DNA of 64,000 nt from Vicinamibacterales bacterium (GCA_036004865.1 DASYQZ010000046.1:11473-75472), one strand, 5' to 3'. Shown: positions 4,302-33,581, counted from the stretch's first letter. Notes: generated by a model not told the origin, from the sequence alone. Program-made: numbers and translations.

Positions 4302-5890
4302 CACACGAAACAGATATCTGCATCATCGGCGGCGGGATCACCTCCGCGATGCTCGCGCAGAAGCTCTCCGAGCTGCGGCCGGGCGTCCACATCACCGTCG
4401 TCGAGGCCGGCCGATCGATCTTCGACGTCCAGAATCGCGGCCGCTATCGCGAGCGCGCCAACGACTACGGCGAGCATCCATGGCACGACGACTACATCGA
4501 GGATCAGCAGGCATCCGGCATCATCTCCATGACGATGGCGGTCGGCGGGCTCGCGCTGCATTGGGGCGGCGCGTGCAACCGGTTTTCGGAAGAGGACCTG
4601 CGGCTGAAAGCGATGTACGGGCTCGCCGTCGACTGGCCGATCGCGTTCAAAGAGCTCGAGCGCTACTACTGCGAGGCGGAGCGGCGCCTGAACGTGAGCG
4701 GCGCACCGAGTCAGTACTCCGAGGATTGGCGGTCGCAGCCCTATCCGCAGCCGCCGATTCCGCTGTCGTACAACCTGCAGATACTGAAAGCGTGGGCGGA
4801 GAACAGCGGCCTGAAATTCGACGGGCTGCCGATGGCGCGCAATCTGACGCCGTACGGCGGCCGGGGCGCCTGCTGCGTCTACGACACGTGCGGCGAAGTC
4901 TGTCCGTCGGGCGCGCGCTACTCGCCCGACTTCACGTTCCGCCAGTTGATGGAGCCACAAAAGATCGTCCTGCACGATCGCACGCTCGTGCGGCGGCTCG
5001 TGCTCGACGAGCGGCGTCCCGACGTGGTCGCGGCGCAAGGCGTTCATCAGGATCGGCCGGCCGATCCGGTCGAATACCGCGCGAAGACGTTCGTCGTCGC
5101 CTCGGGATACTGCTGGAGCTCGCACTTGCTTCTGCTGTCGTCGAGCTCGCGGTTCCCGAACGGACTCGCGAACAGTTCGGGTCTCGTGGGCCGGTACATG
5201 AACGGCCATTCGTTCATCTCGGCGACCGCGAACATCGACGACCAGACGTTTCCCGGTCAGAACATGACGCACAGCCTGATCTCGCGGCAGTACTTCAGGT
5301 GCGCGACCGACAAACCGTTCGTGCGTCACGACACGCGCGTGTGGGAAAGCTCCGCCGGACGGGATCCTCGACTCCGGACGCCGGAGGGCAAGCTGCTGCT
5401 CGGCGACGAGCTGATGGCGGACTGGCGATCGCGGACGAAGGGCAGCTCCGTGCGTCTGCGCGCGTACGTCGACGTGCATCCGTCGGCTGACAGCCGACTG
5501 ACGCTCGACGCGTCGAAGAAGAATCGCTACGGCGATCCGATGCCGAAGATCGAGCATCGCTTCGATGACGCGACGCGCGCGCGGCAGGCGGCGACGACGG
5601 CGCACGTGCTGAACGTATTCGGCACGCTGGCGAAGGCGAGCAACGGACGAATCGCCAATTCGAGCGAGAGCGACTACCTCGATCATCCGGGCGGTGGGTG
5701 CCGCATGGGCGCCGATGCCGCGACGAGCGTGTGCGACAGCTACGGCCGCACGCACGATCACGCGAACCTGTTCGTCGTCGGCGCGCCGACGACGCCGACC
5801 GGCGGCTGCACGAACGGCACGCTGACCTTCGTCGCGCTGACGCTGCGGTCCGCGGACGAAATCGCGAGCGAATTTCCGACACGACGTTGA
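4298..5890 (+). CDS. GMC family FAD oxidoreductase
   Basis: N-terminal FAD fold DICIIGGGITSAMLA. C-terminal GMC-like region HPGGGCRMG...NLFVVGAP. Confidence 0.85.
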   Translation: MTHETDICIIGGGITSAMLAQKLSELRPGVHITVVEAGRSIFDVQNRGRYRERANDYGEHPWHDDYIEDQQASGIISMTMAVGGLALHWGGACNRFSEEDLRLKAMYGLAVDWPIAFKELERYYCEAERRLNVSGAPSQYSEDWRSQPYPQPPIPLSYNLQILKAWAENSGLKFDGLPMARNLTPYGGRGACCVYDTCGEVCPSGARYSPDFTFRQLMEPQKIVLHDRTLVRRLVLDERRPDVVAAQGVHQDRPADPVEYRAKTFVVASGYCWSSHLLLLSSSSRFPNGLANSSGLVGRYMNGHSFISATANIDDQTFPGQNMTHSLISRQYFRCATDKPFVRHDTRVWESSAGRDPRLRTPEGKLLLGDELMADWRSRTKGSSVRLRAYVDVHPSADSRLTLDASKKNRYGDPMPKIEHRFDDATRARQAATTAHVLNVFGTLAKASNGRIANSSESDYLDHPGGGCRMGADAATSVCDSYGRTHDHANLFVVGAPTTPTGGCTNGTLTFVALTLRSADEIASEFPTRR

Positions 5891-5959
5891 ACGCAGAACA
5901 CGCGGAATCCGCAGAAAAGACGGCTCTGCGAGTTCTGCGGTTTCTGCGTTGATCGTCGT
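5881..5959. repeat. Palindromic periodic-unit element, CGCAGAA(n) family, copy 1
   Basis: The arms ACGACGTTGAACGCAGAACACGCGGAATCCGCAGAA and CTCTGCGAGTTCTGCGGTTTCTGCGTTGATCGTCGT are near reverse complements. It lies between convergent stops (5890, 5968) and is near-identical in design to 33500-33581. Confidence 0.85.
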
Positions 5960-5967
5960 CGGCCAGA

Positions 5968-6603
5968 TTACGAGCGGACGACTTGCAGATGAATCCCGCA
6001 TTCGAGCTTCTGGCCCTGCCAGCGTCCCGATCGCGGATTCGCCGGATCGATCGGCAGCGACGTGCATGGCTCGCAGCCGATGCTCGTGTAGCCGAGCTCG
6101 TACAACGGCAACAGCGGGATGTCGTGCGCCTTCGCGTACTGCCAGACGTCTCGCATCGTCCACGCCGCGAGCGGACTGACTTTGCGGAGCACCTTCGCCG
6201 TCGGCAGCGTGAACGGCTCGACCTCGGCGAGGTTCGCGCGTGACGGCGACTGCTCGCGCCGGAGCGCCGTGAACCACGTGTCGTAGCCCTCGAGCGCCGC
6301 GAACAGCGGCCCTACCTTGTGACGCGCGCAGCACGCGTGCGTGTCGGTTTGCCACAATCCTCGCTGAGGTTCGACGGCGCGCAGATTCACGAGATTGAGG
6401 CGCCAGCGCGCCGTCAGCTCGTCGCGATACGTGTAGGTCTCGGTGAAATGATGCACGGTGTCCAGAAAGAGCACGGGGATGTCGGGCCGCACTTCGCGGA
6501 GCATGTGCACGAGCACGACGCAATCCGCCTGAAAGCTGGCGGTGACGCACGCCGCGTCCGCCCGCGCGAGCTCTGCCGCCACGATCGAATGAACGTCGCT
6601 CAC
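5968..6603 (-). CDS. cysH: Adenylyl-/phosphoadenylyl-sulfate reductase (thioredoxin-dependent), Fe-S type
   Basis: PAPS_reduct fold with LFLDTVHHFTETY. The CC pair (THACCARHK) and C-terminal SIGCEPCT match the CC...CxxC cluster motif. GTG 6603 overlaps the cysN stop (GTGA). Confidence 0.85.
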   Translation of the reverse strand: MSDVHSIVAAELARADAACVTASFQADCVVLVHMLREVRPDIPVLFLDTVHHFTETYTYRDELTARWRLNLVNLRAVEPQRGLWQTDTHACCARHKVGPLFAALEGYDTWFTALRREQSPSRANLAEVEPFTLPTAKVLRKVSPLAAWTMRDVWQYAKAHDIPLLPLYELGYTSIGCEPCTSLPIDPANPRSGRWQGQKLECGIHLQVVRS

Positions 6604-7919
6604 GTCAGCACCTCCTCGAGCACGTGGCGGACCGCCTCGATGGCATCGCCCTCGGTCAAAGCTGCACGTGCGGCCATGGCGATCCGCTCGGCGACGCCGC
6701 GATGCCCCGTAATCGGCGTCGCGGCGGGCGTCTGTCGTACCGCCGCAGTCATCATGCCGGCCCCGGCCGTGAAATGCGTCGCCGGGTCGATGACGATGAA
6801 GCTGCCCGTCGCGCGATTGACGGCGTACGCATCGAAGGTCAGCGGCCGAGCCGTCGAAACGGTCACCGATCCGATCTGATTGAGGACGAGACCGCGATCG
6901 ATCTCCGCGGTGACCGTCCGCGTGCCGTGCTTGAGCAAATAGACCCGCGACGGATCCAGCGGACGCTCGTCCATCCAGACCATCTGCGCGCCGAAGCGCG
7001 CCGACACCTGGATGTCGCTGCCAGGGCCGGCGGCGAGGACGTCGCCGCGGCTCACGTCGATCTCGTCGTCGAGGACGATCGCGATCGACATCGGCGCGAT
7101 CGCCTGCTCGAGATCGCCGTCCCACGTGACGATGCGACGCACCGTCGTGGAGCGGCCGGTGGGCCACGCGGCGATCGCGTCGCCGACGCGCACCGTGCCC
7201 GACACGATCTGGCCGGCGTACCCTCTGAACTCCTGATCGGGCCGCAGCACGAGCTGCACAGGCATCCTGAACGCACCGCCTGCGGCATCGCCGTCGACAT
7301 GCACGGTTTCGAGATAGTCGAGCAGCGGCGGGCCGTCGTACCACGGCAGGCGATCGCTCGGCGTCGTCACGTTGTCGCCGTGGAGTGCGCTGATGGGAAT
7401 CGCCTGCAGCGAAACGTCGCCTGACAGCTCGGCGAAGGAGTCGCGGATGTCGTCGAAGACCTCGCGATCGTAATCGACGAGATCCATCTTGTTGACCGCG
7501 AGGACGAACGTCGAGATGCCGAGCAGCCGGGCGATGCGCGCGTGCCGCTTCGACTGGACCCGTATGCCGTGGCGGGCGTCGACCAGCAGCACCGCGACGT
7601 CGGCGGTCGAGGCGCCTGTGGCCATGTTCCGCGTGTACTGCTCGTGGCCGGGCGTGTCGGCGAGGATGAACTTGCGGCGGGCGGTCGCGAAATACCGGTA
7701 CGCGACGTCGATCGTGATGCCCTGCTCGCGCTCGGCGCGGAGCCCGTCGGTGAAGAGCGAGAAGTCGATCGGCCCCGCGGTGCGATTTCGCGACGCGCGC
7801 TCGACGGACCGCACCTGATCCTCGTAAACGCCGCGCGAGTCGTACAGCAGCCGTCCGATCAGCGTGCTCTTCCCATCGTCGACGCTGCCGGCGGTACAGA
7901 TGCGCAGCAACTCCTTCAT
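6600..7919 (-). CDS. cysN: Sulfate adenylyltransferase subunit 1 (GTPase), no APS-kinase domain
   Basis: G1 motif GSVDDGKST and DTPGHEQY. About 439 aa, with no C-terminal CysC extension. ATGA overlap with cysD. Confidence 0.9.
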   Translation of the reverse strand: MKELLRICTAGSVDDGKSTLIGRLLYDSRGVYEDQVRSVERASRNRTAGPIDFSLFTDGLRAEREQGITIDVAYRYFATARRKFILADTPGHEQYTRNMATGASTADVAVLLVDARHGIRVQSKRHARIARLLGISTFVLAVNKMDLVDYDREVFDDIRDSFAELSGDVSLQAIPISALHGDNVTTPSDRLPWYDGPPLLDYLETVHVDGDAAGGAFRMPVQLVLRPDQEFRGYAGQIVSGTVRVGDAIAAWPTGRSTTVRRIVTWDGDLEQAIAPMSIAIVLDDEIDVSRGDVLAAGPGSDIQVSARFGAQMVWMDERPLDPSRVYLLKHGTRTVTAEIDRGLVLNQIGSVTVSTARPLTFDAYAVNRATGSFIVIDPATHFTAGAGMMTAAVRQTPAATPITGHRGVAERIAMAARAALTEGDAIEAVRHVLEEVLT

Positions 7920-8818
7920 CAGAAGTACCCCTCCCGTTTCTTGAGCTCCATCGACCCGTCCCGATCGTGATCGATGATGCGAAGCTGCCGTTCCGAGTGG
8001 CGCGCGCCAATCAGCTCGTCGATGATCTTCGGCACGGTGTCGGCCTCGGAGCGCACTGCGCCGGTGCACGGCGAGCAGCCGAGCGACCGCATGCGGCACA
8101 CCACGCGCACGGGCCGCTCGCCCGGCAGCAACGGCACGAACGGCTGTTCGACCAGGATGAGCGCGTCGCCGCGCACGACGACCTCGCGTTCGCGCGCGAA
8201 GTACAGCGGGACCACCGGAATCCGCTCGGCGTGGATGTAGTGCCACACGTCGATCTCCGTCCAGTTCGACAGCGGAAACACGCGGATGCTCTCGCCCGGC
8301 TGGACGCGGCCGTTCAACAGGTGCCACAGCTCGGGACGCTGCCGCTTCGGATCCCACTGACCTCGCGCGTCGCGCAGCGAGAAGATCCGTTCCTTCGCCC
8401 GCGAGCGTTCCTCGTCCCGCCGCGCGCCGCCGAACGCGGCGTCGAAGCCGCCGGCCTCGAGCGCATCGAGCAGCGCGCGCGTCTTGAGCAGCCCGCAGCA
8501 TCGCTCGGTGCCGACCAGAAACGGCTGGGTGCCCTGCGCGATGGCTTCTTCGTTGGTGTGCACGATCAGCCGTGCGCCGATCTCGGCCGCATGGCGATCG
8601 CGGAACTCGATCATCTCGCGGAACTTGTAGGTCGTGTCGACGTGCAGCAGCGGAAACGGAATCGGTCCGGGATGAAAGGCCTTCTGCGCCAGCCGCAGCA
8701 GCACGGACGAATCCTTGCCGATCGAGTAGAGCATGACCGGCCGCTCGAATTCGGCGACCACCTCGCGGATGATGTGGATGCTCTCCGCTTCGAGCGCGCG
8801 CAGATGATCAAGCGGCAT
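7919..8818 (-). CDS. cysD: Sulfate adenylyltransferase subunit 2
   Basis: [15 protein letters not shown]-loop region. Colinear with CysD along its 299 aa and directly upstream of cysN. Confidence 0.9.
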
Positions 8819-9665
8819 GCTTCACCAACTGCCCGCGATCGACCGTGAAGAATCGGTAGAGCAGACACGCGTCCGTGGCGATGACGGCGGCCATCACCAG
8901 ATAGGCGGCGCCGCCGTCGACCAGATGGAGATCGCGCAGCAGCGTCGAGACGCCGAACGAAACGACCCAGGCGTCGAAGCTCATACAGACGCGGCGAAAT
9001 GTTTCGGGCGAAATGTGTTGGATGAGGAGCGCGCCAATGGGCACGCCGATGGCGACGCTCGGCAGAATCCACGGGACGAGCGCGAGGCTCTCGCGCGCGA
9101 ACAGACCGGCGGCAAGATACGCCGCCGCCGTCATCGTCGATTCGGCGAGGCGGACGAAGCCGAGCGCGGCGCGGAATTCCTGTTTCGAGAACCCCTGGTT
9201 GTTGAGCGCCACGGCGAGCGGCGGACCGGAGATGGTCGTGACCGCATACAACACGCCGATGCCGGTGCCGAAGGCGAGGCCCGCGGATCGCTCCGCCCGG
9301 ATCGGCCGGCGGTAGCCGGCGGCCTGCACGAGAATCAGCGGCAGCAGCGCGGCGAACGTCGCCAGCTTGAGCCAGCCCGGATGCACGAGCGAGAGGATGG
9401 CCGTGCCCGCCGCGACGCCGGGCGCGAGCCCGATGACGATCGGCAGCACGCGACGCCACACGTGCGGCAGCGCCGCGCGATTCACCCACAGCACGTACGC
9501 GTTCAGCGCCACCTCGATGAGGACGAGCGCCGGGTTGAGGACGCGGTTCGTGAGGAAGAGGAGCGCGAGCGGAACGGTCAGCGACGAAAAGCCGTATCCG
9601 AGCGCGCCGTTGACCACGGCGGCGCCGAATGTGATGAACGCAAGGGCAACGCTGCTGAATGACAT
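8808..9665 (-). CDS. TauE/SafE family sulfite/anion exporter-like membrane protein
   Basis: About 8 TM helices, Gly-rich repeats ([16 protein letters not shown]). First gene of the cys operon. ATG 9665 ([10 protein letters not shown]) is preferred over the track start 9701. Confidence 0.7.
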
Positions 9666-9898
9666 GTGCGCTTCTCCGCCCGCGCAACGTTGAGCGCGCA
9701 AGGGCGATTCACTGCCGCTGATCGGGAATTTGAACGGGGCCGACCGATCAGCGAGGGGAGAAGCGTGAAAGTCGGAAAACTATGAAAGGCTTCTCACCGG
9801 GCGATCGCCGGCCGCATACACGCGCATCGACAGATCGATGCGGCGCCGGGACGACAACAACAGGTGAGGGAGGAGGACATCGAAACTACAGACCAGAG

Positions 9899-9928
9899 AG
9901 ATAACACGGAAGCCCCGCGTCCTGTCAA
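9899..9928 (-). promoter_or_regulatory. Possible sigma-70-type promoter TTGACA-18-TTATCT for the tauE-cysDNH operon
   Basis: On the minus strand, TTGACA lies at 9928-9923 and TTATCT at 9904-9899. This would give a 5' leader of about 225 nt. Confidence 0.3.
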
Positions 9929-10014
9929 GCGCTCATTCACGCCGTTCCACGTCCCGTTCGTGCCAAACCGCTAGGCCGGTCACAGACTTCACCGCATGCT
10001 GATCGCAGGGAGGG

Positions 10015-10410
10015 ATGCGCATGCGCATCATCAAAGTCATCGGGATGTGGACGCTGCAGATTCTGCTCGGCGCGTTGTTCGTCGTGGTGGGCGCGGCGAA
10101 GTTCGGCGATCCGGGCTGGGCGCGGAAGTTCGCCGCCTGGGGATATGCCGACAGTTTTCGAATCGTCGTCGGCGTGCTCGAGATCGCAGGCGGGCTGATG
10201 GTGCTCGTCCCGCGTGTGGCGCCGTACGGATCACTGCTAATCATGACGATTATGGTCGGCGCCGCCATCACGCATCTCCAACACGGCGAAATGCAGCGGC
10301 TCGCCGCGCCGCTGGTCTATCTCGCCGTCGCCGCTGCGGTCGGTTGGCTTCGGCGCTCGTCCGCCATCTCGCCGTCACGCGGCCGGGGACCTGAGCGGGC
10401 AGTGGTATAA
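10015..10410 (+). CDS. DoxX family membrane protein
   Basis: 131 aa with four hydrophobic helices and WTLQILLGALFVVVGAAKF. AGGGAGGG lies upstream of the start. Confidence 0.7.
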   Translation: MRMRIIKVIGMWTLQILLGALFVVVGAAKFGDPGWARKFAAWGYADSFRIVVGVLEIAGGLMVLVPRVAPYGSLLIMTIMVGAAITHLQHGEMQRLAAPLVYLAVAAAVGWLRRSSAISPSRGRGPERAVV

Positions 10411-10418
10411 CCCTGCGC

Positions 10419-11465
10419 GTGGCGTGGTGGCCCATCCTCGGTGTCTATACGGTCCTGGGCCTGCTGTTCACCGGACAGGTCGTCATCGACTACGCGTACG
10501 CGGGACATCCGCTCGCATGGTGGCGCGCGATGGCGCTCGCGTTGATCGAGTGGTACCTGTGGGCGCTCGCGACGCCGATCGTCGTGTGGCTCGCGCGGCG
10601 GTTTCGTCTCGATCGGCGCCATTGGCTCGGCTCGCTCGCCGTGCACATGCCGGCGAGCGTGGTGTGCACCGTCGCGAAGCAGATTGCCGACACGGTGGCC
10701 GCCTCCACGATTACCGGCATCGCGCGCGGACCCTTCTCGTTCATCACAATCAACATGGCGTTTCTGACGTACTGGGTGATCGTGGGCGCCACGTACGCCG
10801 CCGAGCACTATCAGAAGTACCGCGAACGGGAGCTGGAGGCGGCGCGTCTGGAAACCGCGCTCGCGCGATCGGAGCTGCAGTCGCTGCGCATGCAACTCCA
10901 TCCGCACTTTCTGTTCAACACGCTCAACACGATCGCCGCGCTCATGCGCGAAGATGTCGAGGCCGCCGACGTCATGATGGCGCGGCTCGGCGATCTGCTG
11001 CGCGTGACGCTCGCGTCGGCCGACGTCCCGGAGGTGCCGCTCAGACGCGAGCTGGAGCTCGTCGAGATGTACCTGGAGATTCAGCGCGCGCGGATGGGCG
11101 AACGCCTGACGGCCCGCATCGATGCGGCGCCCGACACGCTCGATGCGGCGGTGCCGACACTCCTGCTGCAGCCGATCGTCGAGAACGCCGTGCGGCATGG
11201 GGCGGGGGCGAGGCCGGGCGCGGCGCGCATCGACGTCTCCGCTGTTCGCGAGGGCGACACGTTGATTCTCGACGTGCGGGACGATGGGCCGGGGCCAGCG
11301 CCGGCGGCAGCATTTCGACACGGTCTCGAGAACACGCGCGCGAGACTGGCCGCCGCGCACGGCCCGGCGGCATCGTTCGAGTTGAGCCGCGCGGCCGGCG
11401 GCGGCGCGCTCGCGCGCCTGCGGATGCCGATTCGACCGGTCGAGTTGGCGGGGACCGGCACATGA
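10419..11465 (+). CDS. LytS/YehU-type sensor histidine kinase
   Basis: N-terminal TM helices. H-box LHPHFLFNTLNTI. HATPase boxes QPIVENAVRHG and DDGPG. Confidence 0.8.
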   Translation: MAWWPILGVYTVLGLLFTGQVVIDYAYAGHPLAWWRAMALALIEWYLWALATPIVVWLARRFRLDRRHWLGSLAVHMPASVVCTVAKQIADTVAASTITGIARGPFSFITINMAFLTYWVIVGATYAAEHYQKYRERELEAARLETALARSELQSLRMQLHPHFLFNTLNTIAALMREDVEAADVMMARLGDLLRVTLASADVPEVPLRRELELVEMYLEIQRARMGERLTARIDAAPDTLDAAVPTLLLQPIVENAVRHGAGARPGAARIDVSAVREGDTLILDVRDDGPGPAPAAAFRHGLENTRARLAAAHGPAASFELSRAAGGGALARLRMPIRPVELAGTGT

Positions 11466-12219
11466 CGCTACGCGCGCTCATCGTCGACGACGAGCCGCTC
11501 GCGCGGCGCCGGTTGAGGACGCTGTTGAAGGCCGAAGCAGATCTCGACATCGTCGGCGAGTGCGAAGATGGCGTGTCGGCGATCGCGGAGACCCGGCGAT
11601 TGGCGCCCGACGTGCTGTTCCTCGACGTGCAGATGCCCGGCCTGGACGGCTTCGACGTCATCGAAGCGCTCGGGCCGTCGGCGCGCGCCGCGGTCATCTT
11701 CGTGACCGCGTACGACCAGCATGCGCTGCGGGCGTTCGAGGTCCATGCGGTCGACTATCTGTTGAAGCCGTTCGATCGGGCCCGACTGCGGCAGGCGGTG
11801 GCGCGCGTCCGCGCGCTCCGTGTGGACGCCGCCGAATTGGGCCGGCGCCTGCTCGCGTTGGTCGGCGACGTGACGGCCAATCGGCCGCTCGATCGGGTGG
11901 TCGTGAAGTGCGCGGCCGCGTGTACTTCGTCCGCGCCGACGAGATTGATTGGATCGAGGCCGCCGGACATTACGTGGTCTTGCACATCGCGCGCGAGGAA
12001 CATGTCATTCGCGAGTCGATCAAAACGCTTGCAGAGCGGCTGGACGCCGATCGGTTCGTCCGGATTCACCGATCGATCATCGTGAACATCGATCGCGTGA
12101 AAGCGCTCGCGCCGACGTTCCACGGCGAGTACGAACTGGAGCTGCGCGACGGTACGCGCCTGGCGTCGGCCCGGGGTTATTCGGACCGACTCCAGGCGCT
12201 CGCCAGGGGACACTTCTAA
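11462..12219 (+). pseudogene. LytR/AlgR (LytTR) response regulator, apparent -1 frame break near 11906-11914
   Basis: The receiver domain (MTLRALIVDDEPLAR..FLDVQMPGLDG..LLKPF) is in the frame of ATG 11462. The LytTR domain (RVYFVRADEIDWIEAAGHYVVLH..FVRIHRSIIVN) is in the frame of ORF 11560-12219. The switch lies between AAG (11906) and GGCCGC. Confidence 0.7.
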
Positions 12220-12328
12220 TTGCAGATTGCAGATTGCAGATTGCTGATTCAAATTGCTGATTTGCTGATTGCTGAATGCGTTTGAATTCAATCTGCAATC
12301 TGCAATCTGCAATCTGCAATCTGCAATG
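12219..12328. repeat. Palindromic periodic-unit element, CAGATTG family
   Basis: The left arm is (ATTGCAG)x3 plus ATTGCTG variants. The right arm is (ATCTGCA)x4 ending CTGCAATG. It lies between convergent stops 12219 and 12337. Confidence 0.85.
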
Positions 12329-12336
12329 TCGCGAGG

Positions 12337-13533
12337 CTATTTCGCCGCCGTCAGCATGATCTCGACAAGGCCGTCGGCGCCCATCAGGCCGCTGCCGACG
12401 GTGGCGCGAGCGGGGAAATCCTTCTTGAACGTCTCGCGGTAGCCGGCATTCATACTCTGGTAGTTCGCCATGTTCGTCAGATAGACGACGCCGTCCACGA
12501 CGTGATCCCACTCGAAGCCGGCCGCCTTCAGTGTGCGGCCGATCCGCGCCAGCGCCTCGACGGTCTGTGCTTTCGCGTCGCCCTTGTTGGTCTCGGTGTT
12601 GCCGAGGATCCCCGCGACGTACAGCCGATTGCCGACGCGGATCGCCGAGCTCAGATTCGGATTCGGCTTGCCGGGTGATCCGTCGGCGGCCGGAGTCGTG
12701 ATGGCCGTCCGGCCTGGATCCTTCACTGCGACCATGGTGATCTCGACGACATAGTCGGGGCCCGCCAGTCCGGTTTTCACCGTCGCACGTGCCGGTGGAG
12801 ACGACGGGAAGTACGTCCGGTATGCCGCGTTCATCGCCTGGAACGTGGTGTCGTCGGTCAGATAGACACGCGAGCTCACGACGTCCGCGAAGGTCATGCC
12901 GGCCTGTTTGAGAATCGCCCCCGCGTTGTCGAGCACCGTCTTCGTCTGCGCCGTGATGTCACCCTTCACGACGGAGTTGTCCTTGCCGTTCCGGCTCACG
13001 AGCCCGGCAAGGAACAGCGTGTTGCCGCTCTTGATCCCGTAGCTGTAGGGGCTCGGCGACTTGATCCAGTCGCTCGGGTGCACGACCACGCGCTCGGCGC
13101 CATTCGGCACGGCGACCATCGAGATCTCAATCAGCCCGTCGGGGTTCGCAAACGGCTGCGGGACGATGACGGTCGTGCGCGTTGGCGGATCCTTCGGCCA
13201 GTAGGTCGAGTACACCTCGTTCATCGCGGCGAAGTCGCCCGCGTTCTGCAGGTAGACCATGACGCTCGCGGCATTGGCGAAGCTCGAGCCTGCCGCCTTC
13301 AGCGTCGCGCCGATGTTGTCGAGCGTCTGTCTGGTCTGTGCCTTGATGTCGCCCTTGGCGACCGGGCCGCTGGCGGGACCGATGGTCCCGGCCACGTAGA
13401 TGAGCCCGCCCGCCTTGACCGCGCCACTGAACGGCCGCGTGGCGTCGGGCTTGAAGATTTGTTTCGACGATGACTGAGCGAGCGTCATGGTGATGGCGAG
13501 GCTCGCAAAGGCGAGCACGAGAAACAGGCGCAT
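12337..13533 (-). CDS. Secreted protein with three tandem RidA/YjgF/L-PSP domains
   Basis: Signal peptide MRLFLVLAFASLAITMTLAQ. Three repeats of about 125 aa each end in ..AR(A/T)TV..(V/I)EI(S/T/M).. . AGGAG lies 7 nt before the ATG. Confidence 0.75.
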   Translation of the reverse strand: MRLFLVLAFASLAITMTLAQSSSKQIFKPDATRPFSGAVKAGGLIYVAGTIGPASGPVAKGDIKAQTRQTLDNIGATLKAAGSSFANAASVMVYLQNAGDFAAMNEVYSTYWPKDPPTRTTVIVPQPFANPDGLIEISMVAVPNGAERVVVHPSDWIKSPSPYSYGIKSGNTLFLAGLVSRNGKDNSVVKGDITAQTKTVLDNAGAILKQAGMTFADVVSSRVYLTDDTTFQAMNAAYRTYFPSSPPARATVKTGLAGPDYVVEITMVAVKDPGRTAITTPAADGSPGKPNPNLSSAIRVGNRLYVAGILGNTETNKGDAKAQTVEALARIGRTLKAAGFEWDHVVDGVVYLTNMANYQSMNAGYRETFKKDFPARATVGSGLMGADGLVEIMLTAAK

Positions 13534-13563
13534 GTGTAGCTCCTGAAAAAAGAGAGGGTCATT

Positions 13564-13989
13564 CTACACGTTGTTTCCCTCCGTCGGCCGGCTTTCGCCG
13601 TCCGCCGTGAGCTGCACTTTTGGCGCGAGCGACCAGTCGAACTCCTGCAGGCGTCCGGGTCCCAGGCGCTCGACCTCGTGCAGTGCCGCCGCCGCCGCGT
13701 CGACGAGCGCCTGGACATCGACGCGCTGGCACCGCGGCAGAAACGGCGCGAGATATCGCGGACCGCGCGTCAGGAGGTACACCGTCCCGTGGTGATTCAG
13801 CCGGCGAAGCTGGTAGAACGCGACGCCGATCTGCAGGATGCCCTGGTAGAGGTAGCGGATGTCGCGTCGCTCCGCGATCCAGAGCCGCTCGAGCGTCTCG
13901 TGCTGCTCGAAGTACTCGCCGCGATTGAACTGCGCGATGCCCTCGAGAAGCAGCGGCGGCGGCGGTTCGTCGCATGGTCTGGGCGTCAG
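13564..13989 (-). CDS. DUF309-like protein, start codon unresolved
   Basis: The frame reads LLLEGIAQFNRGEYFEQHETLERLWIAERR...YQGILQIGVAFY. There is no in-frame ATG/GTG/TTG upstream of 13782. ATG 13975 is in another frame just before a (CCG)4 tract, and CTG 13989 is the only in-frame candidate. Confidence 0.5.
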   Translation of the reverse strand: MTPRPCDEPPPPLLLEGIAQFNRGEYFEQHETLERLWIAERRDIRYLYQGILQIGVAFYQLRRLNHHGTVYLLTRGPRYLAPFLPRCQRVDVQALVDAAAAALHEVERLGPGRLQEFDWSLAPKVQLTADGESRPTEGNNV

Positions 13990-14008
13990 GCGCTGTATCT
14001 TAATAGAG

Positions 14009-14401
14009 ATGATCGAGAAGCGGCGATCGAAGATCCATGGATGGGGCGTCTACGCGACCAAACGGATTCCAAGGAACAAGCGCATCATCGACTACGCCGG
14101 CGAGAAGATCTCGAACCAGGAGAGCCTCAGGCGCGAGCGGCGGTACATTCAGCGGGGCCACATCTGGTGTTTCAAGCTGACGAACCGCACCGTCATCGAC
14201 GCCGGCATCGGCGGCAACAACGCGCGCTTCATCAATCATTCCTGCCGCCCCAACTGCTACGTGCACATCGTCGGCGGAATCATCTGGATTCGCGCGGCGC
14301 GGACCATTCGAAAGGGCGAGGAGCTGACCTACAACTACAACACGGACGGTGACGGCCTGATCAAATGCCGATGCCGCCCCGGCTGCCAGAAACTGTTGTG
14401 A
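14009..14401 (+). CDS. SET domain protein (putative protein-lysine methyltransferase)
   Basis: IHGWGVYATKRI, ARFINHSCRPNC, ELTYNY and a C-terminal CRCRPGC post-SET-like motif. Confidence 0.8.
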   Translation: MIEKRRSKIHGWGVYATKRIPRNKRIIDYAGEKISNQESLRRERRYIQRGHIWCFKLTNRTVIDAGIGGNNARFINHSCRPNCYVHIVGGIIWIRAARTIRKGEELTYNYNTDGDGLIKCRCRPGCQKLL

Positions 14402-15072
14402 AGGCCCTTCGACCGGCTCAGGGCAGGCCGCGCGTCGTCTACCTCCACGGCTTCGCCTCGTCTTCTCGTTCGACGAAGGCGGCCTATTTCGGCGACCGGC
14501 TCCGGGAGCACGGGGTCGCGTTCGAATGTCCCGACTTCAACGAGCCGGACTTCGAGACGATGACCGTGACGCGGATGCTCGATCAGCTCGGGACGGCCCT
14601 CGCTCGCGGCGGCGACGGCCCCGTGGCGCTCATGGGATCGAGCCTCGGCGGCACGCTGGCGATTCTCGCGGCCGCGAAATTTCAATCGTCGATCGATCGC
14701 GTCGTACTGCTCGCGCCGGCGGTCATGTTCGCCAAGCCCGGGGATCACGTGTTGCCACCAGAGCGCATCCAGGAGTGGCGGCTGCGGGGCGCGATGCCGT
14801 TTTTTCACCACGGGTACAACGAGGAGCGCCTCCTGAACGTCTCGTTCTACGAGGACAGCCTCGAGTACGATGCGTTCCACACAGCCGTCGAGCAACCGAC
14901 GCTCGTCTTTCAAGGTCTGCGCGACGCGTCGGTGGACTACCGCACGGTCGAAGCGTTCGCGCGCACACGACCGAACGTCACGTTGTCGCTGCTGGACGAT
15001 GATCATCAATTGATGACGAGCCTGCCGCGCATCTGGGAGGGCGTCGCGGATTTCCTGGAGCTCGTCGAGTGA
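14398..15072 (+). CDS. YqiA/UPF0227-like alpha/beta hydrolase (esterase)
   Basis: VVYLHGFASS and the nucleophile elbow GSSLGG. GTG 14398 overlaps the SET stop (GTGA). The track start ATG 14365 is an alternative. Confidence 0.65.
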   Translation: MKALRPAQGRPRVVYLHGFASSSRSTKAAYFGDRLREHGVAFECPDFNEPDFETMTVTRMLDQLGTALARGGDGPVALMGSSLGGTLAILAAAKFQSSIDRVVLLAPAVMFAKPGDHVLPPERIQEWRLRGAMPFFHHGYNEERLLNVSFYEDSLEYDAFHTAVEQPTLVFQGLRDASVDYRTVEAFARTRPNVTLSLLDDDHQLMTSLPRIWEGVADFLELVE

Positions 15073-15095
15073 TTCGCAATCGCCACAGCCGCGAC

Positions 15096-15197
15096 ACACG
15101 GAAACGCAACCACGAAAGCACGAAAGCACGAAAAAGATTTTCTTGTACAAGAATGCGTTCGTGGTTTCGTGGTTTCGTGGTTGCACTTTTCGTCGTG
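15096..15197. repeat. Palindromic periodic-unit element, CACGAAA(G) family
   Basis: Left arm GCAACCACGAAAGCACGAAAGCACGAAAAAG. Centre ATTTTCTTGTACAAGAAT. Right arm CGTTCGTGGTTTCGTGGTTTCGTGGTTGC. It overlaps the start and signal peptide of the SpoIID gene. Confidence 0.85.
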
Positions 15198-16739
15198 GGT
15201 TCACTCGCGAGTGCGATCCAGGAGTCACCCATCCAACTCCGCGTGGGCCTCGCGAGACCCGGCGGCGGATACGCCATCGCGACGCTGCCGCTGGAGACGT
15301 ATGTCGCGCGCGTGCTGGCGGGCGAAGCGGCGCGTGACAGTCAGCCGGCGGCGCTCGAAGCGCTGGCGATCACGATTCGCACGTTCGCGCTCGCGAATCG
15401 CGGGCGGCACCGCGCCGATGGATTCGACCTCTGCGATCAGACGCACTGTCAGGTCGTGCGGACCGCGACATCGTCGACCGAGCGCGCGGCGCAGGCGACT
15501 GCGGGCCGCATCCTGCTGCGTGGACGTGACGTGGCGAGTGTGTACTACACAGCATCGTGCGGAGGACGGACGGAGATTCCATCGGCCGTCTGGCCCGGTC
15601 ACGACGATCCGCCGTACTTGCCGTCGCACGACGACGATGCCTGCGGAGGCACGCCGGCCTGGGTCGCGGAGATTCAGAACGCGGATGTGTTTCGTGCGCT
15701 GCGCGCGGCCGGATTCCGCGGCGAGCGTCTGCGCGACATGCGCGTCGTGTCGCGGAACGGATCGGATCGCGTCGCGCGGCTGCGGGTCGAGGGTCTGCAG
15801 CCGGATCAGATTTCAGGACAGGACCTGCGCGTCGCCGTCGGCCGCACGCTCGGATGGCAGCACATCAAGAGCACCGCGTTCGAGCTGCGCAAGCAGGGCG
15901 ATGCGTACCGGTTCAGCGGTCACGGGTCAGGGCACGGCGTCGGCCTGTGCGTCATCGGATCGGCGCGCCTCGCCGCGGACGGCCGTGACACCAACTACAT
16001 CTTGGGCCGCTATTTCCCCGGCCTCAACATCTCGACGCCGCCAATCATTACAAGTCGGAGTGAAGTCGGAGTGAAGTCGGAGTCCAGTCCGACTGCAGTC
16101 GGAGTGAAGCCGGAGTCCAGTCCGGCCGGAGTCGGGGTGAAGTCGGAGTCAAGTCCGACTGGAGTCGGAGTGAAGTCGGACTCGAGTCGGAGTGGAGACA
16201 TTTGGGTGGCGCTGCCGGATGACGATGGGGGGGAGCAGGCGGCGATCGTCAGGCTGACGCTGCGCGCCCGCGACGAGCTCGCGCGGACGCTTGGCGTTGC
16301 GCCGCCGCCGCGCGTGACGCTGCGGTTCCACCCGACTACCGACGACTACGAGCGCGCCACCGGCCAGCCGTGGTTCACCTCCGCGGCGATCGTCAACGGC
16401 GAGCTGCACTTTCTTCCGCTCGCGGTGCTCCGCGAACGGGGAGTCCTCGATCGCACGATCCGCCACGAGCTGGTGCACGCGATGACCGACGCCGCGCTCG
16501 CGCGCCGGCCGCTGTGGGTCCGGGAAGGCGCGGCGATCCACTTCGCGGGCGAGCCGCCGATTCCGGGCGAGCCGCAGCAGCGGCCCGCGTTCATGCCGGA
16601 GCCGCGCGCCTCATGCCCCGACGACCACGAGCTGCGGCGCCCCGTCTCGGTCGGCGCGCTGACGAACGCCTACGCGCGCGCGCGCGCGTGTTTTGCGAAG
16701 CAGATCCAGGGCGGTAAACCGTGGCGGGATGTGAAGTGA
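15153..16739 (+). CDS. SpoIID/LytB domain protein fused to a C-terminal HExxH domain
   Basis: YYTASCGGRTE and GHGVGLC are SpoIID motifs. The C-terminal part carries HELVHAM. An 11-aa x4 repeat linker joins the two. ATG 15153 (MRSWFRGFVVALFVV) is preferred over 15069. Confidence 0.75.
   Translation: MRSWFRGFVVALFVVGSLASAIQESPIQLRVGLARPGGGYAIATLPLETYVARVLAGEAARDSQPAALEALAITIRTFALANRGRHRADGFDLCDQTHCQVVRTATSSTERAAQATAGRILLRGRDVASVYYTASCGGRTEIPSAVWPGHDDPPYLPSHDDDACGGTPAWVAEIQNADVFRALRAAGFRGERLRDMRVVSRNGSDRVARLRVEGLQPDQISGQDLRVAVGRTLGWQHIKSTAFELRKQGDAYRFSGHGSGHGVGLCVIGSARLAADGRDTNYILGRYFPGLNISTPPIITSRSEVGVKSESSPTAVGVKPESSPAGVGVKSESSPTGVGVKSDSSRSGDIWVALPDDDGGEQAAIVRLTLRARDELARTLGVAPPPRVTLRFHPTTDDYERATGQPWFTSAAIVNGELHFLPLAVLRERGVLDRTIRHELVHAMTDAALARRPLWVREGAAIHFAGEPPIPGEPQQRPAFMPEPRASCPDDHELRRPVSVGALTNAYARARACFAKQIQGGKPWRDVK
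16053..16195 (+). repeat. In-frame tandem array, 13 x 11 nt (AGTCGGAGTGA variants)
   Basis: 143 nt. Three units make a 33-nt super-period, read as VGVKSESSPTA x4 inside the SpoIID ORF. Units alternate AGTCGGAGT and AGTCCGACT, giving local palindromes. Confidence 0.85.
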
Positions 16740-16744
16740 CATGA

Positions 16745-16922
16745 CATTGCGGATTGCGGATTGCGGATTGCGGATTTATTGACGATTGCCGGATTGTGGA
16801 TTGTTGATTCGATCGGGGTTACGAGCGGCGATTCGGTTGGGGGACTCGCGAATGACGAATGCCCAAATCATCGATGACAAATCAACAATGAATCCGCATT
16901 CCGCAGTCCTCAATCCGCAATG
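16745..16922. repeat. CGGATTG-family palindromic element, long form
   Basis: Termini are CATTGCGGATTGCGGATTGCGGATTGCGGATTTATTGACG and CCGCAGTCCTCAATCCGCAATG. The internal module is shared with 63484-63677. It lies between convergent stops 16739 and 16930. Confidence 0.9.
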
Positions 16923-16929
16923 ACACGAT

Positions 16930-18596: not shown

Positions 18597-18602
18597 TTTT
18601 GA

Positions 18603-18632
18603 TGCTCGCGGGGCCCCGCCCCCACTCGCTAC
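18603..18632. repeat. GC-rich short repeat GCTCGCGGGGC.., partial copy
   Basis: GCTCGCGGGGCCCCGCCCCCACTCGCTACC in the 32-nt spacer between stop 18629 and start 18596. Confidence 0.35.
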
Positions 18633-19945: not shown

Positions 19946-19958
19946 AGGGCGGACCTTT

Positions 19959-20065
19959 GTATTGCGGATTGAGGATTGCGGATTGCGGATTTATTGGGGA
20001 TTGACAGGTGAGCGGCTTGCGAATCGCGCAAAGAATCCGCATTCCGCATTCCGCAATCCGCAATG
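19959..20065. repeat. CGGATTG-family palindromic element, short form
   Basis: GTATTGCGGATTGAGGATTGCGGATTGCGGATTTATTGG ... AATCCGCATTCCGCATTCCGCAATCCGCAATG. It lies within the 3' end of ORF 19942-21282. Confidence 0.9.
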
Positions 20066-25128: not shown

Positions 25129-25129
25129 G

Positions 25130-30536: not shown

Positions 30537-31721
30537 TCAGCTCTCCACCACAGAGGACACGGAGGACACGGAGGTTAAATCGGTTTTGTCCTCCGCGTCC
30601 TCCGTGTCCTCTGCGGTGGAGATGTCGCGGATATCCGCACTCGAACCAAGCACGTCGCGATATGCCGCTAACCACTGCTCCCGGACCGACGACCACGTGC
30701 ACGATTGCACACGCGCGCATGCCGCGCGGATGAGACGGTCGGCGTACGGCTGGTCATCGAGCAATCGCAGGACGTGCGCGGCGAGGCGCTCGTGATCGTT
30801 GAGCGGTGCGAGCAGTCCGCGCTCGCCGTGCGTGAGAATCGCCGGTACGCCTCCGGCTTCGGTCGAGACCACCGGCAGGCCGCTCGCGAACGCCTCGAGC
30901 ACGGAGGTCGGCATGTTGTCGATGTTCGGCGACTGAACGTAGATGTCGTTGGCGGCGTAGTAGTCCGCGATCCGATCCGGCGGCACGCGGCCGGTGAACT
31001 CGACCCCCGTCACACCCAGCTCGGTGACGAGGGCGCGGAGTGCGGCCTCCTCACTGCCGGCGCCCACCAGTGTCAGCGTCGCGTGGGGATGCCGATCCTG
31101 CACGAGCCGGAACGCGCGAATCGTGCAGGCGACGTTGTAGAGCTCGTCGAAGTTTCTCGTCGAAACCAGCCGCGGGCGAAGCGGGGCGCGCGCGCGAAAC
31201 GCGAATCGATCGAGGTCCACGATGTTCGGGATGACGCTGGCCTGGATGCCGAATTCGCGGAACACGTCGACCAGGAACTGCGACGGGACGATGTTCGCGT
31301 CGGCCTCGGCGACGGTCTTCCGCGCGATGGCCGATCGGCTGAGGTGATCGGGCGCCTCGCCGCTCCGGTAGTTCAGGATGACCGGCTTGCCCAGCGCCCG
31401 GCCGATGAGCATGGCCGGCAGCGGGGCGAGCAGATACGAGGCGTACGACGCGGAGAACACGTGCACGACGTCCGCGCGTGCGAGCTCGCGCACCAGCAGC
31501 GGCAGGTAGGTGAGCTCGTTGATCACCGTGCGCAGGTACTTGATGCCGAGCGCGAACCGCAGGCCCCTGGGCGGTAGAGGATTCACGGGCACGAGCCACG
31601 CGTCGACGTCCGGATCGTTCTCCCATGCCCGCAGCAATCGATCCGCCTGCACGGCCTGCCCGCCAAGAATCCGCAGCGAGGGCGCCACCACCGCGACCTT
31701 CAATCGCCGTCCGCCATCCAT
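30537..31721 (-). CDS. Glycosyltransferase family 4
   Basis: KVAVVAPSLRILGGQAV and NMPTSVLEAFASGLPVVSTEAGG. ATG 31721 is preferred. The C-terminal tail (STAEDTEDAEDKTDLTSVSSVSSVVES) is encoded by a palindromic element. Confidence 0.8.
   Translation of the reverse strand: MDGGRRLKVAVVAPSLRILGGQAVQADRLLRAWENDPDVDAWLVPVNPLPPRGLRFALGIKYLRTVINELTYLPLLVRELARADVVHVFSASYASYLLAPLPAMLIGRALGKPVILNYRSGEAPDHLSRSAIARKTVAEADANIVPSQFLVDVFREFGIQASVIPNIVDLDRFAFRARAPLRPRLVSTRNFDELYNVACTIRAFRLVQDRHPHATLTLVGAGSEEAALRALVTELGVTGVEFTGRVPPDRIADYYAANDIYVQSPNIDNMPTSVLEAFASGLPVVSTEAGGVPAILTHGERGLLAPLNDHERLAAHVLRLLDDQPYADRLIRAACARVQSCTWSSVREQWLAAYRDVLGSSADIRDISTAEDTEDAEDKTDLTSVSSVSSVVES
30543..30621. repeat. Palindromic periodic-unit element, GGAGGACAC (9-nt) family
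   Basis: The arms CTCCACCACAGAGGACACGGAGGACACGGAGG and CCTCCGCGTCCTCCGTGTCCTCTGCGGTGGAG are near reverse complements. It lies inside the 3' end of ORF 30537-31721. Confidence 0.85.
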
Positions 31722-31998: not shown

Positions 31999-32013
31999 TG
32001 GTCACGGCTTTGC
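31999..32013 (+). promoter_or_regulatory. sigma-54-like box TGGTCACGGCTTTGC
   Basis: GG-N10-GC with TTGC at -12. There are 52 nt to ATG 32066, which has a GGAGG Shine-Dalgarno sequence. Confidence 0.45.
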
Positions 32014-32065
32014 CCTGACGCGCGCGGTTCCCTACAACTGATCAAACGGCTGACCTGGAGGCTCA

Positions 32066-33490
32066 ATGCGGAAGGACGTGTCTCGTGTGTGCGCTCGCGC
32101 GATGTTCGGAGTGGTTGTGTTCGCGGCGTCGGTGTCGGCGGTGGCCGCCCAGACGACGGTCACGTTGAACCAATCGAGGCCGCAGGTGGTTTACGCGACG
32201 CTTCGCGCCGGAGCGTATGCCAACACGAACTATCCGACCGTGCTGACGACGCGCGCAGCCGACACGGCCGACAACCACCGCCGAGCGCTCCTGAAGTTCG
32301 ACACGCAGAACACGATTCCCGCCGGGAGCGCTGTCACCTCCGCGCTGCTGACGGTGACGGTCAAGAGCGGTGGCGCGACGACGCCACGAACCATCGGTGC
32401 CTATCAGGTCACGACTTCGTGGGCCGAGACCGAGACAACCTGGAACCGCCGCCGCACGACCGCCGAATGGATGACCCACGGCGGCGATCTCGGCTCGCTC
32501 ATCGCCCAGTGGGACGTCTCGAACGTCGCCGGCACCAAGGTGACCTTCGACGTCACGCCGCTGGTCAAACAGGCCGTCTCCGGCGCGCTCGGCAGCTCGC
32601 GCTACACGCGCATGGCGCTCGTCGATCTCGATCCGGCGAGTGGCGATTCGACGCGGAATTTCTACACGCCCGATGAATCGAACTCGGCGCTGCGCCCGAC
32701 ACTGAAAGTCGTCTACGGCGGGACGACGACGACCGCTGGAAGCACGACGACGCTGCGCGTGCTCGACTGGAACACGCATCATGGTGGCGTCGGCACCGAT
32801 GGCAAGCTCGACGCGGATCGCCTCATCAAGAAGGCGGCGAGCTTCAAACCCGACATCGTGTCGTTCAACGAAGTGGAGCGCTATACCGGCTGGGGAAATT
32901 ACGACGGACCTGCGGTCATGGCTGCCCTGATGAAGAAGTACACCGGTCTGACCTGGTACTACAAGTTCGCGACCGCCACCGGCGCGGCTACGGGCAACGG
33001 CAACCTGATCCTTTCGCGCTTTCCGTTCGCTGCGACCGACGTTCAACTGCTCAGCCACAATCGGTCCGCCGTGAACGCCACGATCAACGTCAACGGCCGG
33101 TCGATCAACTTCTTCTCGACACATCTCGACGCCGATTCGACGAGCTACAGGCTGCAGGAGATCGGAGAGCTGACCTCGTGGGCGAAAGGCATTGCGGAGC
33201 AACGCATCATCGCCGGCGATTTCAACGCGTGGCCCGGGTCGACCGAGAACAAGACAATGACGATCACCTACGTCGACTCGTGGGCGCAGGCGCAGACCGA
33301 CGGCACGGCGGTCGCGTATTCCGCCAACACCGCGGGCAACACGCGCAACAGCCGCATCGACTACATCTACTACTCGAAGGGCGCGACGGCCCTGAAGCTC
33401 GTGTCGTCGCAAGTGTTCGACGTCCGCGACGCGAACGGCGTGATGCCGTCGGATCACCGTCCGGTGCTGTCCGTCTTCACGGTGAAATAA
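32066..33490 (+). CDS. Secreted DNRLRE-like domain plus endonuclease/exonuclease/phosphatase (EEP) family protein
   Basis: Signal peptide, then DNHRRALLKFD...TSWAETETTWNRR. The EEP motifs are LRVLDWNTHHG, SFNEVE and SDHRPVLSVF. Confidence 0.75.
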   Translation: MRKDVSRVCARAMFGVVVFAASVSAVAAQTTVTLNQSRPQVVYATLRAGAYANTNYPTVLTTRAADTADNHRRALLKFDTQNTIPAGSAVTSALLTVTVKSGGATTPRTIGAYQVTTSWAETETTWNRRRTTAEWMTHGGDLGSLIAQWDVSNVAGTKVTFDVTPLVKQAVSGALGSSRYTRMALVDLDPASGDSTRNFYTPDESNSALRPTLKVVYGGTTTTAGSTTTLRVLDWNTHHGGVGTDGKLDADRLIKKAASFKPDIVSFNEVERYTGWGNYDGPAVMAALMKKYTGLTWYYKFATATGAATGNGNLILSRFPFAATDVQLLSHNRSAVNATINVNGRSINFFSTHLDADSTSYRLQEIGELTSWAKGIAEQRIIAGDFNAWPGSTENKTMTITYVDSWAQAQTDGTAVAYSANTAGNTRNSRIDYIYYSKGATALKLVSSQVFDVRDANGVMPSDHRPVLSVFTVK

Positions 33491-33499
33491 GTCAGGACT

Positions 33500-33581
33500 C
33501 ACGACGTTCAACGCAGCACTCGCAGAAACCGCAGAGCCAACTTTTTCTGCGAGTTCTGCGAGTTCTGCGTTGCATGTCGTG
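33500..33581. repeat. Palindromic periodic-unit element, CGCAGAA(n) family, copy 2
   Basis: CACGACGTTCAACGCAGCACTCGCAGAAACCGCAGAG ... CTGCGAGTTCTGCGAGTTCTGCGTTGCATGTCGTG, between convergent stops 33490 and 33583. Confidence 0.85.

Follow-up and report, generated by a model that had tools for sequence, protein, structure and literature searches.

Hairpins of inverted short tandem arrays combine a common geometry with many different repeat units at gene ends in Vicinamibacterales

The window analyzed here is a stretch of 64,000 nt, one strand, from a Vicinamibacterales bacterium (GCA_036004865.1 DASYQZ010000046.1:11473-75472). It has a GC content of 63-70% and carries polysaccharide-synthesis genes, and the relatives of its UDP-glucose dehydrogenase are all metagenome-assembled genomes of Vicinamibacterales / Acidobacteria gp6, the best match sharing 91% amino-acid identity. 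We studied seven elements in this window, in each of which a 7-9 nt unit forms two inverted arrays. A reading of the window from its sequence alone (hereafter the sequence-only reading) had described these seven elements, and all were recovered at the same coordinates and with the same units by reading the sequence, by Tandem Repeats Finder and by an inverted-repeat search. The elements and their flanking genes are as follows.

5881-5959: CGCAGAA-family hairpin, unit CGCAGAA with a 2-nt spacer (period 9), -46.8 kcal/mol, z -6.4; between the convergent genes of a GMC oxidoreductase (+) and a 3'-phosphoadenosine-5'-phosphosulfate (PAPS) reductase (-).
12219-12328: ATTGCAG/CAATCTG hairpin, -55.8 kcal/mol, one base away from the unit of the ATTGCGG family; flanked by a LytTR response regulator gene (+) and a RidA-like gene (-) whose stops converge.
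15096-15197: CACGAAAG hairpin, period 8, every unit containing a G.G mismatch; between an abhydrolase stop (15072) and a SpoIID-like gene.
17706-17797: AAGTCTG/CAGACTT hairpin (GAAGTCT family); between formyltransferase-like and deacetylase genes (both -).
30543-30621: GGAGGACAC hairpin, period 9, -68 / -73 kcal/mol, the stablest of the seven; ends ~20 nt short of the start of a heparinase-like gene.
33500-33581: second CGCAGAA-family hairpin, CGCAGAA with a 2-nt spacer (period 9), -54 kcal/mol, z -9.9; between the convergent genes 32066-33490 (+) and 33583-36192 (-).
61786-61835: asymmetric AAGTCTG element, 4.6 units followed by 2 inverted units, -24.8 kcal/mol; exactly fills the 49-nt gap from the stop of the open reading frame (ORF) 61481-61789 to a GT2 start at 61839 (both +).

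Each of the seven elements formed a single long, imperfect hairpin whichever strand was folded (-24.8 to -72.7 kcal/mol, z -4.2 to -14.7), and none of 200 shuffles was as stable. Several stems showed periodic 1x1 or 2x2 internal loops at the unit boundaries. The left arm of 5881-5959 reads ACGACGTTGAACGCAGAA-CA-CGCGGAA-TC-CGCAGAA and the right arm TCTGCG-AG-TTCTGCG-GT-TTCTGCGTTGATCGTCGT. Both CGCAGAA elements begin with ACGACGTT(G/C)AACGCAG and both lie between convergent genes, as originally described. The absence of a U-tract also held: no run of five or more T follows any of the seven elements, the nearest case being a weak CUUUUC (CTTTTC) 2 bases past the 15096 stem. Rfam gave no match in the window at the gathering threshold.

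Three candidate explanations were tried and rejected. No spacers separate the direct repeats, as a CRISPR array would require. The units contain no G-runs, and G3 is lacking in the units of all five families, which excludes a G-quadruplex. An assembly artefact was dismissed because the same elements occur in independent assemblies from at least eight samples.

The elements were far more frequent than expected by chance. For comparison, 80 loci of relatives (1.38 Mb) were gathered via UDP-glucose dehydrogenase, and synteny between these and the window was good; compared loci and contigs are labelled L plus a number. Non-simple tandem arrays with a period of 5-12 were detected and scored as paired when a reverse complement aligned at most 260 nt away. 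This detector superseded a stricter one that relied on exact k-mers common to both arms and missed half of the elements. The window contained 22 paired arms, where 30 order-2 Markov simulations averaged 0.17 and never exceeded 1, and 34 long arrays of period 7 or more, against 1.4 expected. The 80 loci contained 78 paired arms, against 3 in one simulation. Long solo arrays were abundant too (193 vs 15 simulated). Scores of the partner arrays were bimodal, indicating that the class is discrete. Together the window and the 80 loci hold ~58 elements with dozens of units, among them CGCAAAGGC, CACGAAGA, TCGGGAT, AAAAGTG, GAGAGTT, TTGGTGAA, GGGACTG and CAGTTGACT, and the genome of the window is about six times as dense in elements as its average relative. 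These results support two claims of the sequence-only reading, namely that many families share one architecture, which holds across a whole bacterial order, and that no single mobile sequence explains the elements.

The architecture is tightly defined. The period was 7 in 62 of 100 paired arms, and the loop between the arms measured 5-130 nt. Arms were matched in length (median difference 0.29 unit vs 1.09 when permuted), 28 of 39 pairs differing by less than one unit. Heptamer arms showed a sharp mode at 30-32 nt (~4.4 units), which survived the removal of ATTGCGG-like units (16 of 43 arms, 36 distinct units), and 8-9-mer arms had ~3 units and spanned 24-27 nt, with a peak at 24-26 nt. Because free slippage would give no such mode, it was either inherited from an ancestor element or kept by selection or by a length-measuring mechanism. 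Units free of stop codons on both strands were more common than among shuffled units (44/58 vs 37.4, P ~0.01).

Orthologous sites revealed a turnover of units. In the window, the CGCAGAA hairpin and the CAGATTG hairpin both lie between the stops of the GMC-oxidoreductase and RidA genes, on either side of an extra block of genes of 6.4 kb. In relatives the same gap holds an orthologous CGCAGAA hairpin (L001), GGGATTC (L003), CACGAAG hairpins (L009), ATTGCWA (L013), an ordinary GC hairpin (L002) or no hairpin (L004, L007). The CACGAAAG site at 15096 has orthologs in L001 and L002. The formyltransferase/deacetylase junction is empty in L004, one-armed with the AAGTCTG unit in L002, occupied by long solo arrays that mix ATTTCAG and ACTTCAG in L013 and L014, and by an unrelated hairpin in L006. 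Directly 3' of the UDP-glucose dehydrogenase stop, six genomes have six different units. Across relatives, one and the same intergenic site carries different units, a GC hairpin or nothing.

Two side observations concern these sites. The extra block (window 5968-12219, between the two hairpins) encodes CysH/CysD/CysN-like proteins of sulfate assimilation together with TauE, DoxX and a two-component pair of the LytTR type; L001, L002, L003, L004, L007, L009 and L013 lack it in the orthologous convergent gap. At L014 ~9885-9986, the site of the window hairpin 19961-20064, a hybrid was seen whose left (AGATTTC)n array is not complementary to the right (AATCCGC)n array; judged by this sequence, arms appear to be replaceable modules.

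The units had been called unrelated, which is only partly right. Dozens of units do exist, but ATTGCAG at 12219 is one base away from ATTGCGG and has the same CAATG end, and GAAGTCT is linked to it via ATTTCAG. A one-step series runs from ATTGCAG through ATTTCAG to ACTTCAG (the reverse complement of GAAGTCT), with the intermediate found at orthologous sites, and a second, looser cluster comprises CACGAAAG, CACGAAGA, CACGAAGGC and CGCAAAGGC. Since random heptamers are linked by one mismatch at ~2% per pair, the evidence from sites outweighs distances between units.

We then compared near-identical strains, represented by contigs that exact-protein look-ups retrieved from at least eight soil metagenome samples and whose identity to the window is 99.3-100%. 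The look-up with the window UDP-glucose dehydrogenase returned no record, the start codon chosen here differing from that of the database gene call. Differences between strains were concentrated in repeats. One CAATCTG unit (12289-12295) of the 12219 right arm was lost in L203 and L204, one ATTGCGG unit was gained (at 16745) in the left arm of a further hairpin at 16746 in L215, and one more in-frame GTCGGCCCC unit was present at 17976 in the window than in nine near-identical strains. Such gain or loss of single units in one arm shows slipped-strand mispairing. Whole elements also differ between close strains: the hairpin at 12220-12328 is entirely absent in L205, where the convergent stops lie 8 nt apart. 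Elements 5881 (compared in L201/L202), 33500 (identical in L206/L207), 17706 and 19961 were invariant among strains at this depth. Contigs broke inside hairpins in L206/L207 (at 30550) and L211 (at 63568).

A different kind of change was found in L217, where positions 15118-15214 contain 20 differences in ~100 nt, compared with ~0.3% elsewhere, covering the hairpin and 30 nt downstream. Both arm-1 CACGAAAG units had become CACGAAAC; these parallel G to C changes removed the G.G mismatches, and the arm now pairs with arm 2. This divergent patch could be local hypermutation or an imported allele. In L208 (1-1430), an IS481-family element is inserted in the 61786 AAGTCTG array, with ends unrelated to the hairpin ends. 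The 33 nt to the left of this insertion sequence (IS), the only one seen, are unlike the upstream sequence of the window, and may be another copy or an assembly join.

The dispersal of the CGCAGAA family was examined by scanning metagenomes for TCTGCGAGTTCTGCG, which gave 120 loci with ~12 complete CGCAGAA hairpins. These ~12 copies, from different genomes, have in common the non-periodic ends (C)ACGACGATCAACGCAG ... CTGCGTTGATCGTCGT(G), which are also the termini of 33500-33581, and a three-unit layout. In seven copies a G.T is conserved, with CGCGGAA as unit 2 of arm 1 facing TTCTGCG. L183 contains two copies at a distance of 6.6 kb. Among same-strand genes, four copies are antisense and two are sense. 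The flanks of nine copies showed no direct repeat that would mark a target-site duplication, merely one extra paired C...G. The shared ends and the shared arm asymmetry argue that CGCAGAA elements were copied whole. Judged by sequence, CGCAGAA is a copied element, with a pattern unlike repeated local birth and unlike a fixed-orientation RNA. The same short contigs carry other families, among them ATTTGGTT, CACGAAAA, CGCAAAG and TGGAATT. Heptamer and 9-mer inverted array pairs, such as TTAGGAG and CGCAGAACT, were also seen on the lower-GC contigs L126, L184, L148 and L168 (48-55% GC), which probably belong to other phyla.

These data bear on an origin in which each element arises locally and independently, a short array expanding by slippage and the second arm being made by template switching (fold-back synthesis), with no copying between sites; slippage expansion plus fold-back templating was one example that the sequence-only reading gave of a structure-driven origin. 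The slippage part of that proposal stood: one-unit indels do separate strains. A local origin would also account for the junction that is one-armed in L002, has solo arrays in L013/L014 and two arms in the window, for the abundance of solo heptamer arrays, and for the arm-1 units of L217 that both changed and now pair with arm 2. The fold-back part did not stand at the strain level, where changes in unit number hit only one arm at a time, and a structure-driven independent origin fails for CGCAGAA, whose copies share both their ends and their arm asymmetry. Fold-back templating would moreover erase the conserved G.T between the CGCAGAA arms, the non-periodic segments of both CGCAGAA and ATTGCGG recur at non-homologous sites and in different genomes, and the sharp ~31-nt arm mode is unexpected from free slippage. 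We therefore regard purely local birth as decidedly improbable.

The position of the elements relative to genes was informative about function. By coding-strand calls at the flanks, 17 elements lie in convergent, 24 in tandem and 1 in divergent contexts, and one of the convergent calls (30549) is really tandem. Since convergent and divergent gaps are about equally common in a genome, 16-17 against 1 (binomial P near 1e-4) indicates that the elements avoid promoter regions and favour gene ends. This bias would be expected of selected terminators, bidirectional between convergent genes, in a lineage without U-tracts, where only the hairpin is selected and its sequence drifts. The length-matched arms, the strong folding of all elements on both strands and the ordinary GC hairpin of L002 at an orthologous site fit such terminators as well. 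In window positions 1-20000, canonical sites of a hairpin plus a T-run numbered 10, against 11.1 expected, with none at a gene end; none of the seven elements was among these ten terminator-like matches, and one weak match lay inside 16746-16921. As canonical terminators are not enriched, a role as a U-tract-less terminator or as a hairpin protecting 3' ends is plausible.

Other observations speak against dedicated terminators. Four elements had been said to sit exactly at bidirectional-terminator sites, but only three of the seven (5881, 12219 and 33500) lie between convergent genes; the other four lie between same-strand genes inside apparent operons, where stop and start codons overlap or abut in relatives (in L014, and in several at the abhydrolase/SpoIID site), and three elements overlap ORFs. 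The 30543-30621 hairpin encodes the last 28 residues of a glycosyltransferase ORF (-), STAEDTEDAEDKTDLTSVSSVSSVVES and the stop, and in L014 the stop and start codons of the same glycosyltransferase/heparinase-like gene pair overlap. In the 17706-17797 hairpin, the sequence reads as the C-terminal end of the formyltransferase ORF. The right arm of 15096-15197 encodes MRSWFRGFVVA, with which the SpoIID-like protein's signal peptide begins, and this element sits between an ancestral GTGA stop/start overlap and the signal peptide; relatives without the element keep the stop/start overlap there. Half elements and arrays occur within coding sequence, CGCAGAA copies occur in either orientation, and the convergent gaps of L205, L004 and L007 have no hairpin. 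Folding energies on the sense and antisense strands showed no asymmetry in 25 same-strand contexts (15 vs 9, p = 0.42). Hairpin conservation 3' of UDP-glucose dehydrogenase, assessed in 77 loci, gave strong folds everywhere, owing to the high GC and the next gene. Given the operon and ORF sites, the missing hairpins, the lack of an energy asymmetry and the two orientations, we rank copied, tolerated repeats above dedicated terminators, which we consider unlikely. A terminator or RNA-stability role, as far as sequence can tell, is possible but would be dispensable.

The regular geometry raises another alternative, that the elements are register-specific sites of binding or processing, read in 7-nt steps by an OB-fold protein of the cold-shock type or cut by RNase III as double-stranded RNA stems of 25-31 bp. 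Period 7 dominates whatever the unit, the arm length is ~31 nt across at least 18 unrelated units, internal loops recur periodically in the stems, and elements occupy junctions inside apparent operons. Solo (AGGGATT)n arrays run exactly up to the UDP-glucose dehydrogenase ATG in L028 (~9800-10000) and L064 (~9967-9999), an arrangement comparable to that of the TAACTGA repeats of Beggiatoaceae, which end 1 nt before start codons; binding of CspB to heptamer repeats has been floated as an idea (MacGregor 2015, PMC4679880). However, no motif is common to the units, so that binding would need to be independent of sequence, and the elements are dispensable between close strains. We think this alternative very unlikely.

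Taken together, the elements lie far above chance and at gene 3' ends or junctions, almost never between divergent genes. The explanation we favour, with somewhat more confidence than doubt, is a superfamily of microsatellite palindromes across Vicinamibacterales that resembles repetitive extragenic palindromic (REP) sequences and MITEs (miniature inverted-repeat transposable elements) and evolves by slippage and concerted unit change. All families would be one superfamily by descent, having inherited the architecture of a 7-nt step and ~31-nt arms. The unit sequence would be overwritten by concerted evolution, a mutation spreading through the array and its mirror, which would explain why the architecture is conserved and the sequence divergent; the change from CACGAAAG to CACGAAAC in both units of L217 and the mixture of ATTTCAG and ACTTCAG in one array of L013 support such change. 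Spread to new sites would be REP/MITE-like, probably as single-stranded hairpin DNA. Transcribed elements would fold into very stable stem-loops just past the end of the upstream ORF or overlapping it, probably serving as barriers at 3' ends, weak terminators that lack a U-tract or sites of processing, as a by-product or local exaptation and not as an essential function.

Several points weigh against this explanation. No gene flanked by distant inverted arrays, which would be a candidate autonomous element, was found in the ~2.2 Mb searched, where the matches were neighbouring hairpins of the same family, and no transposase or other mobilizing gene was found in this search for array-flanked genes. 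Clear non-periodic parts are common to the copies of CGCAGAA and ATTGCGG only, and the case for common descent of copies is weaker for GAAGTCT, CACGAAAG and GGAGGACAC. A single ancestor of all families is something we infer, and one-mismatch links arise between random heptamers in the ~2% of pairs given above. The 3'-end bias and the matching of arm lengths would fit selection for a functional hairpin equally well. In L205 the flanks differ too, so no precise insertion boundary can be read, and the empty site may be an imported allele instead of an excision or insertion. The flank coding-strand calls are crude, the GC3-based gene caller having missed or miscalled several genes and at least one context being wrong (30549, tandem and not convergent).

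A more speculative and rather doubtful possibility is that the elements are a previously unrecognized kind of repeat, whose geometry is inherited and constrained and whose unit is freely overwritten. If so, there would be a dedicated machine that measures register and length regardless of sequence, for example a hairpin-recognizing HUH-type enzyme or a polymerase/primase with a 7-nt slippage step; alternatively, there would be a lineage-specific, U-tract-independent system of termination or processing made of microsatellites.

The window also contains further hairpins and arrays related to the seven elements.

16746-16921: hairpin of the main ATTGCGG family, used as a comparison element of the same class.
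19961-20064: ATTGCGG main-family hairpin, between glycosyltransferase and UDP-glucose dehydrogenase genes (both -); ortholog in L002.
45323-45367 (-): half (right-arm) ATTGCGG element including the non-periodic inner segment, part of the reading frame of a GT2-like ORF, where it encodes HCGLRIADCGLIDDW in the N-terminal linker.
52040-52154: ATTGCGG main-family hairpin.
53164-53270: ATTGCGG main-family hairpin.
55962-55994 (-): solo heptamer array, (GGGATTY)n as read on the - strand, between two - strand genes.
63485-63676: ATTGCGG main-family hairpin.

The window thus holds two CGCAGAA, two GAAGTCT and at least six ATTGCGG copies, dispersed, extragenic and downstream of genes as is typical of REP sequences. 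The (GGGATTY)n array at 55962-55994 is of the G-rich type, like the quadruplex-forming heptamers of Xanthomonas and Nostoc. Arrays within genes were noted as well. An 11-nt array of AAGTCGGAGTG with inverted CAGTCCGACTG units lies at 16052-16197 within the SpoIID-like ORF as an in-frame low-complexity linker (VGVKSESSPTA repeats), and the 200-nt stretch around it (16047-16246) folds at -85.9 kcal/mol. L001, L004, L007 and L014 each have an 11-nt array with a different unit in the SpoIID-like region, the orthology being taken from coordinates and not from alignment. Positions 17976-18017 are (GTCGGCCCC)x4.7, in frame in the formyltransferase-like gene. In four genomes, inverted arrays flank a conserved zinc-ribbon-like ORF (~60 residues, ...CPKCG...FCNIC...) at L045 20585-20865, L047 19613-19836, L063 20843-21104 and L074 19774-19974; the units differ by genome (GGTCCGCT, CCGGGAT, CGCGGTC and CGAGGGG), and the hairpin loop is then the whole gene.

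No paper on repeats in Vicinamibacterales or Luteitalea was found among the papers searched. Closest among known repeats are the inverted arrays of the GGGAATC heptamer in Xanthomonas. In X. campestris and X. axonopodis these arrays mostly have ~4 units, and 70-75 pairs per genome are in convergent orientation and potentially form stem-loops (Rehm et al. 2015, PLoS One, PMC4692102). They are intergenic, nearer the end of the upstream ORF, and of unknown function, and their length varies between related genomes while the single or inverted-pair arrangement is usually kept (PMC4692102). The elements described here are likewise tandem, intergenic heptamers of ~4 units, with same-unit arrays close together on opposite strands. 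In Xanthomonas, however, there is one G-rich unit, studied as a G-quadruplex (G4) former, whereas here dozens of units coexist and most are unable to form G4; the Xanthomonas-type G4 unit GGGNATC is absent from the five families, and GGGATTY occurs only in the solo array 55962-55994 and in some relatives (L003, L028). The host phylum, Acidobacteriota, differs too, and dispersed families with non-periodic ends and strain-level unit indels are found here. What is new is the coexistence of many units, the conserved geometry and the direct evidence of turnover.

REP sequences and their inverted dimers (REPINs) are mobilized by REP-associated tyrosine transposases (RAYTs) (Bertels & Rainey 2011, PMC3116915; Nunvar 2010, PMC2817692; Di Nocera 2013, PMC3733652). 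Like them, our elements are dispersed extragenic palindromes that follow genes, between same-strand and convergent ORFs, with several families per genome; inverted dimers form long hairpins, singleton remnants and occasional intragenic copies exist, and there is no target-site duplication, which for the CGCAGAA copies is a difference from MITEs. A REP is a single palindrome of 20-40 bp, whereas an arm here consists of direct tandem units over 24-39 nt and is not self-complementary, the palindrome arising only from the pair of arms. REPs also have an unpaired GTAG or CGTC tag; here no GTAG was seen, the CGCAGAA end CGTCGT is paired with ACGACG, and no common tag exists elsewhere. REP repeats flank an associated Y1 (HUH) RAYT gene; no RAYT gene was found near our elements in the ~2.2 Mb searched.

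Other known repeats are more distant. Cyanobacterial short tandemly repeated repetitive (STRR) heptanucleotide sequences, as summarized in a source that cites the original work (cited in PMC4692102), are intergenic tandem heptamers with several units per genome, variable in copy number and almost always direct. The TAACTGA repeats of Beggiatoaceae are intergenic tandem heptamers located mainly just upstream of start codons, with one inverted case among 170 sets (MacGregor 2015, PMC4679880). Both resemble the elements described here as intergenic tandem heptamers with several unit types per genome and a variable copy number, and differ in that their arrays are almost always direct. Intrinsic terminators likewise place a stable hairpin right after stop codons, including between convergent genes, but our elements lack a U-tract, have far longer stems of 25-35 bp and in several cases fall within an ORF end or an operon junction. 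In Drosophila, foldback (FB) transposons have long inverted arms of short tandem subrepeats, on a kilobase scale and sometimes with coding sequence. Their arm architecture is alike, and nothing points to a relationship between these eukaryotic transposons and our elements.

Vicinamibacterales belong to the most abundant bacteria in soil, and their genetics has barely been studied. Very stable hairpins at many gene ends bear on how transcripts are ended and processed in high-GC genomes without canonical terminators. The polymorphism in unit number offers ready-made strain markers for metagenomes, and the hairpins explain some of the contig breaks in short-read assemblies from soil. More broadly, these elements could help to address the over-representation of 7-nt repeats in several bacterial phyla and the way in which palindromic families arise and diverge.

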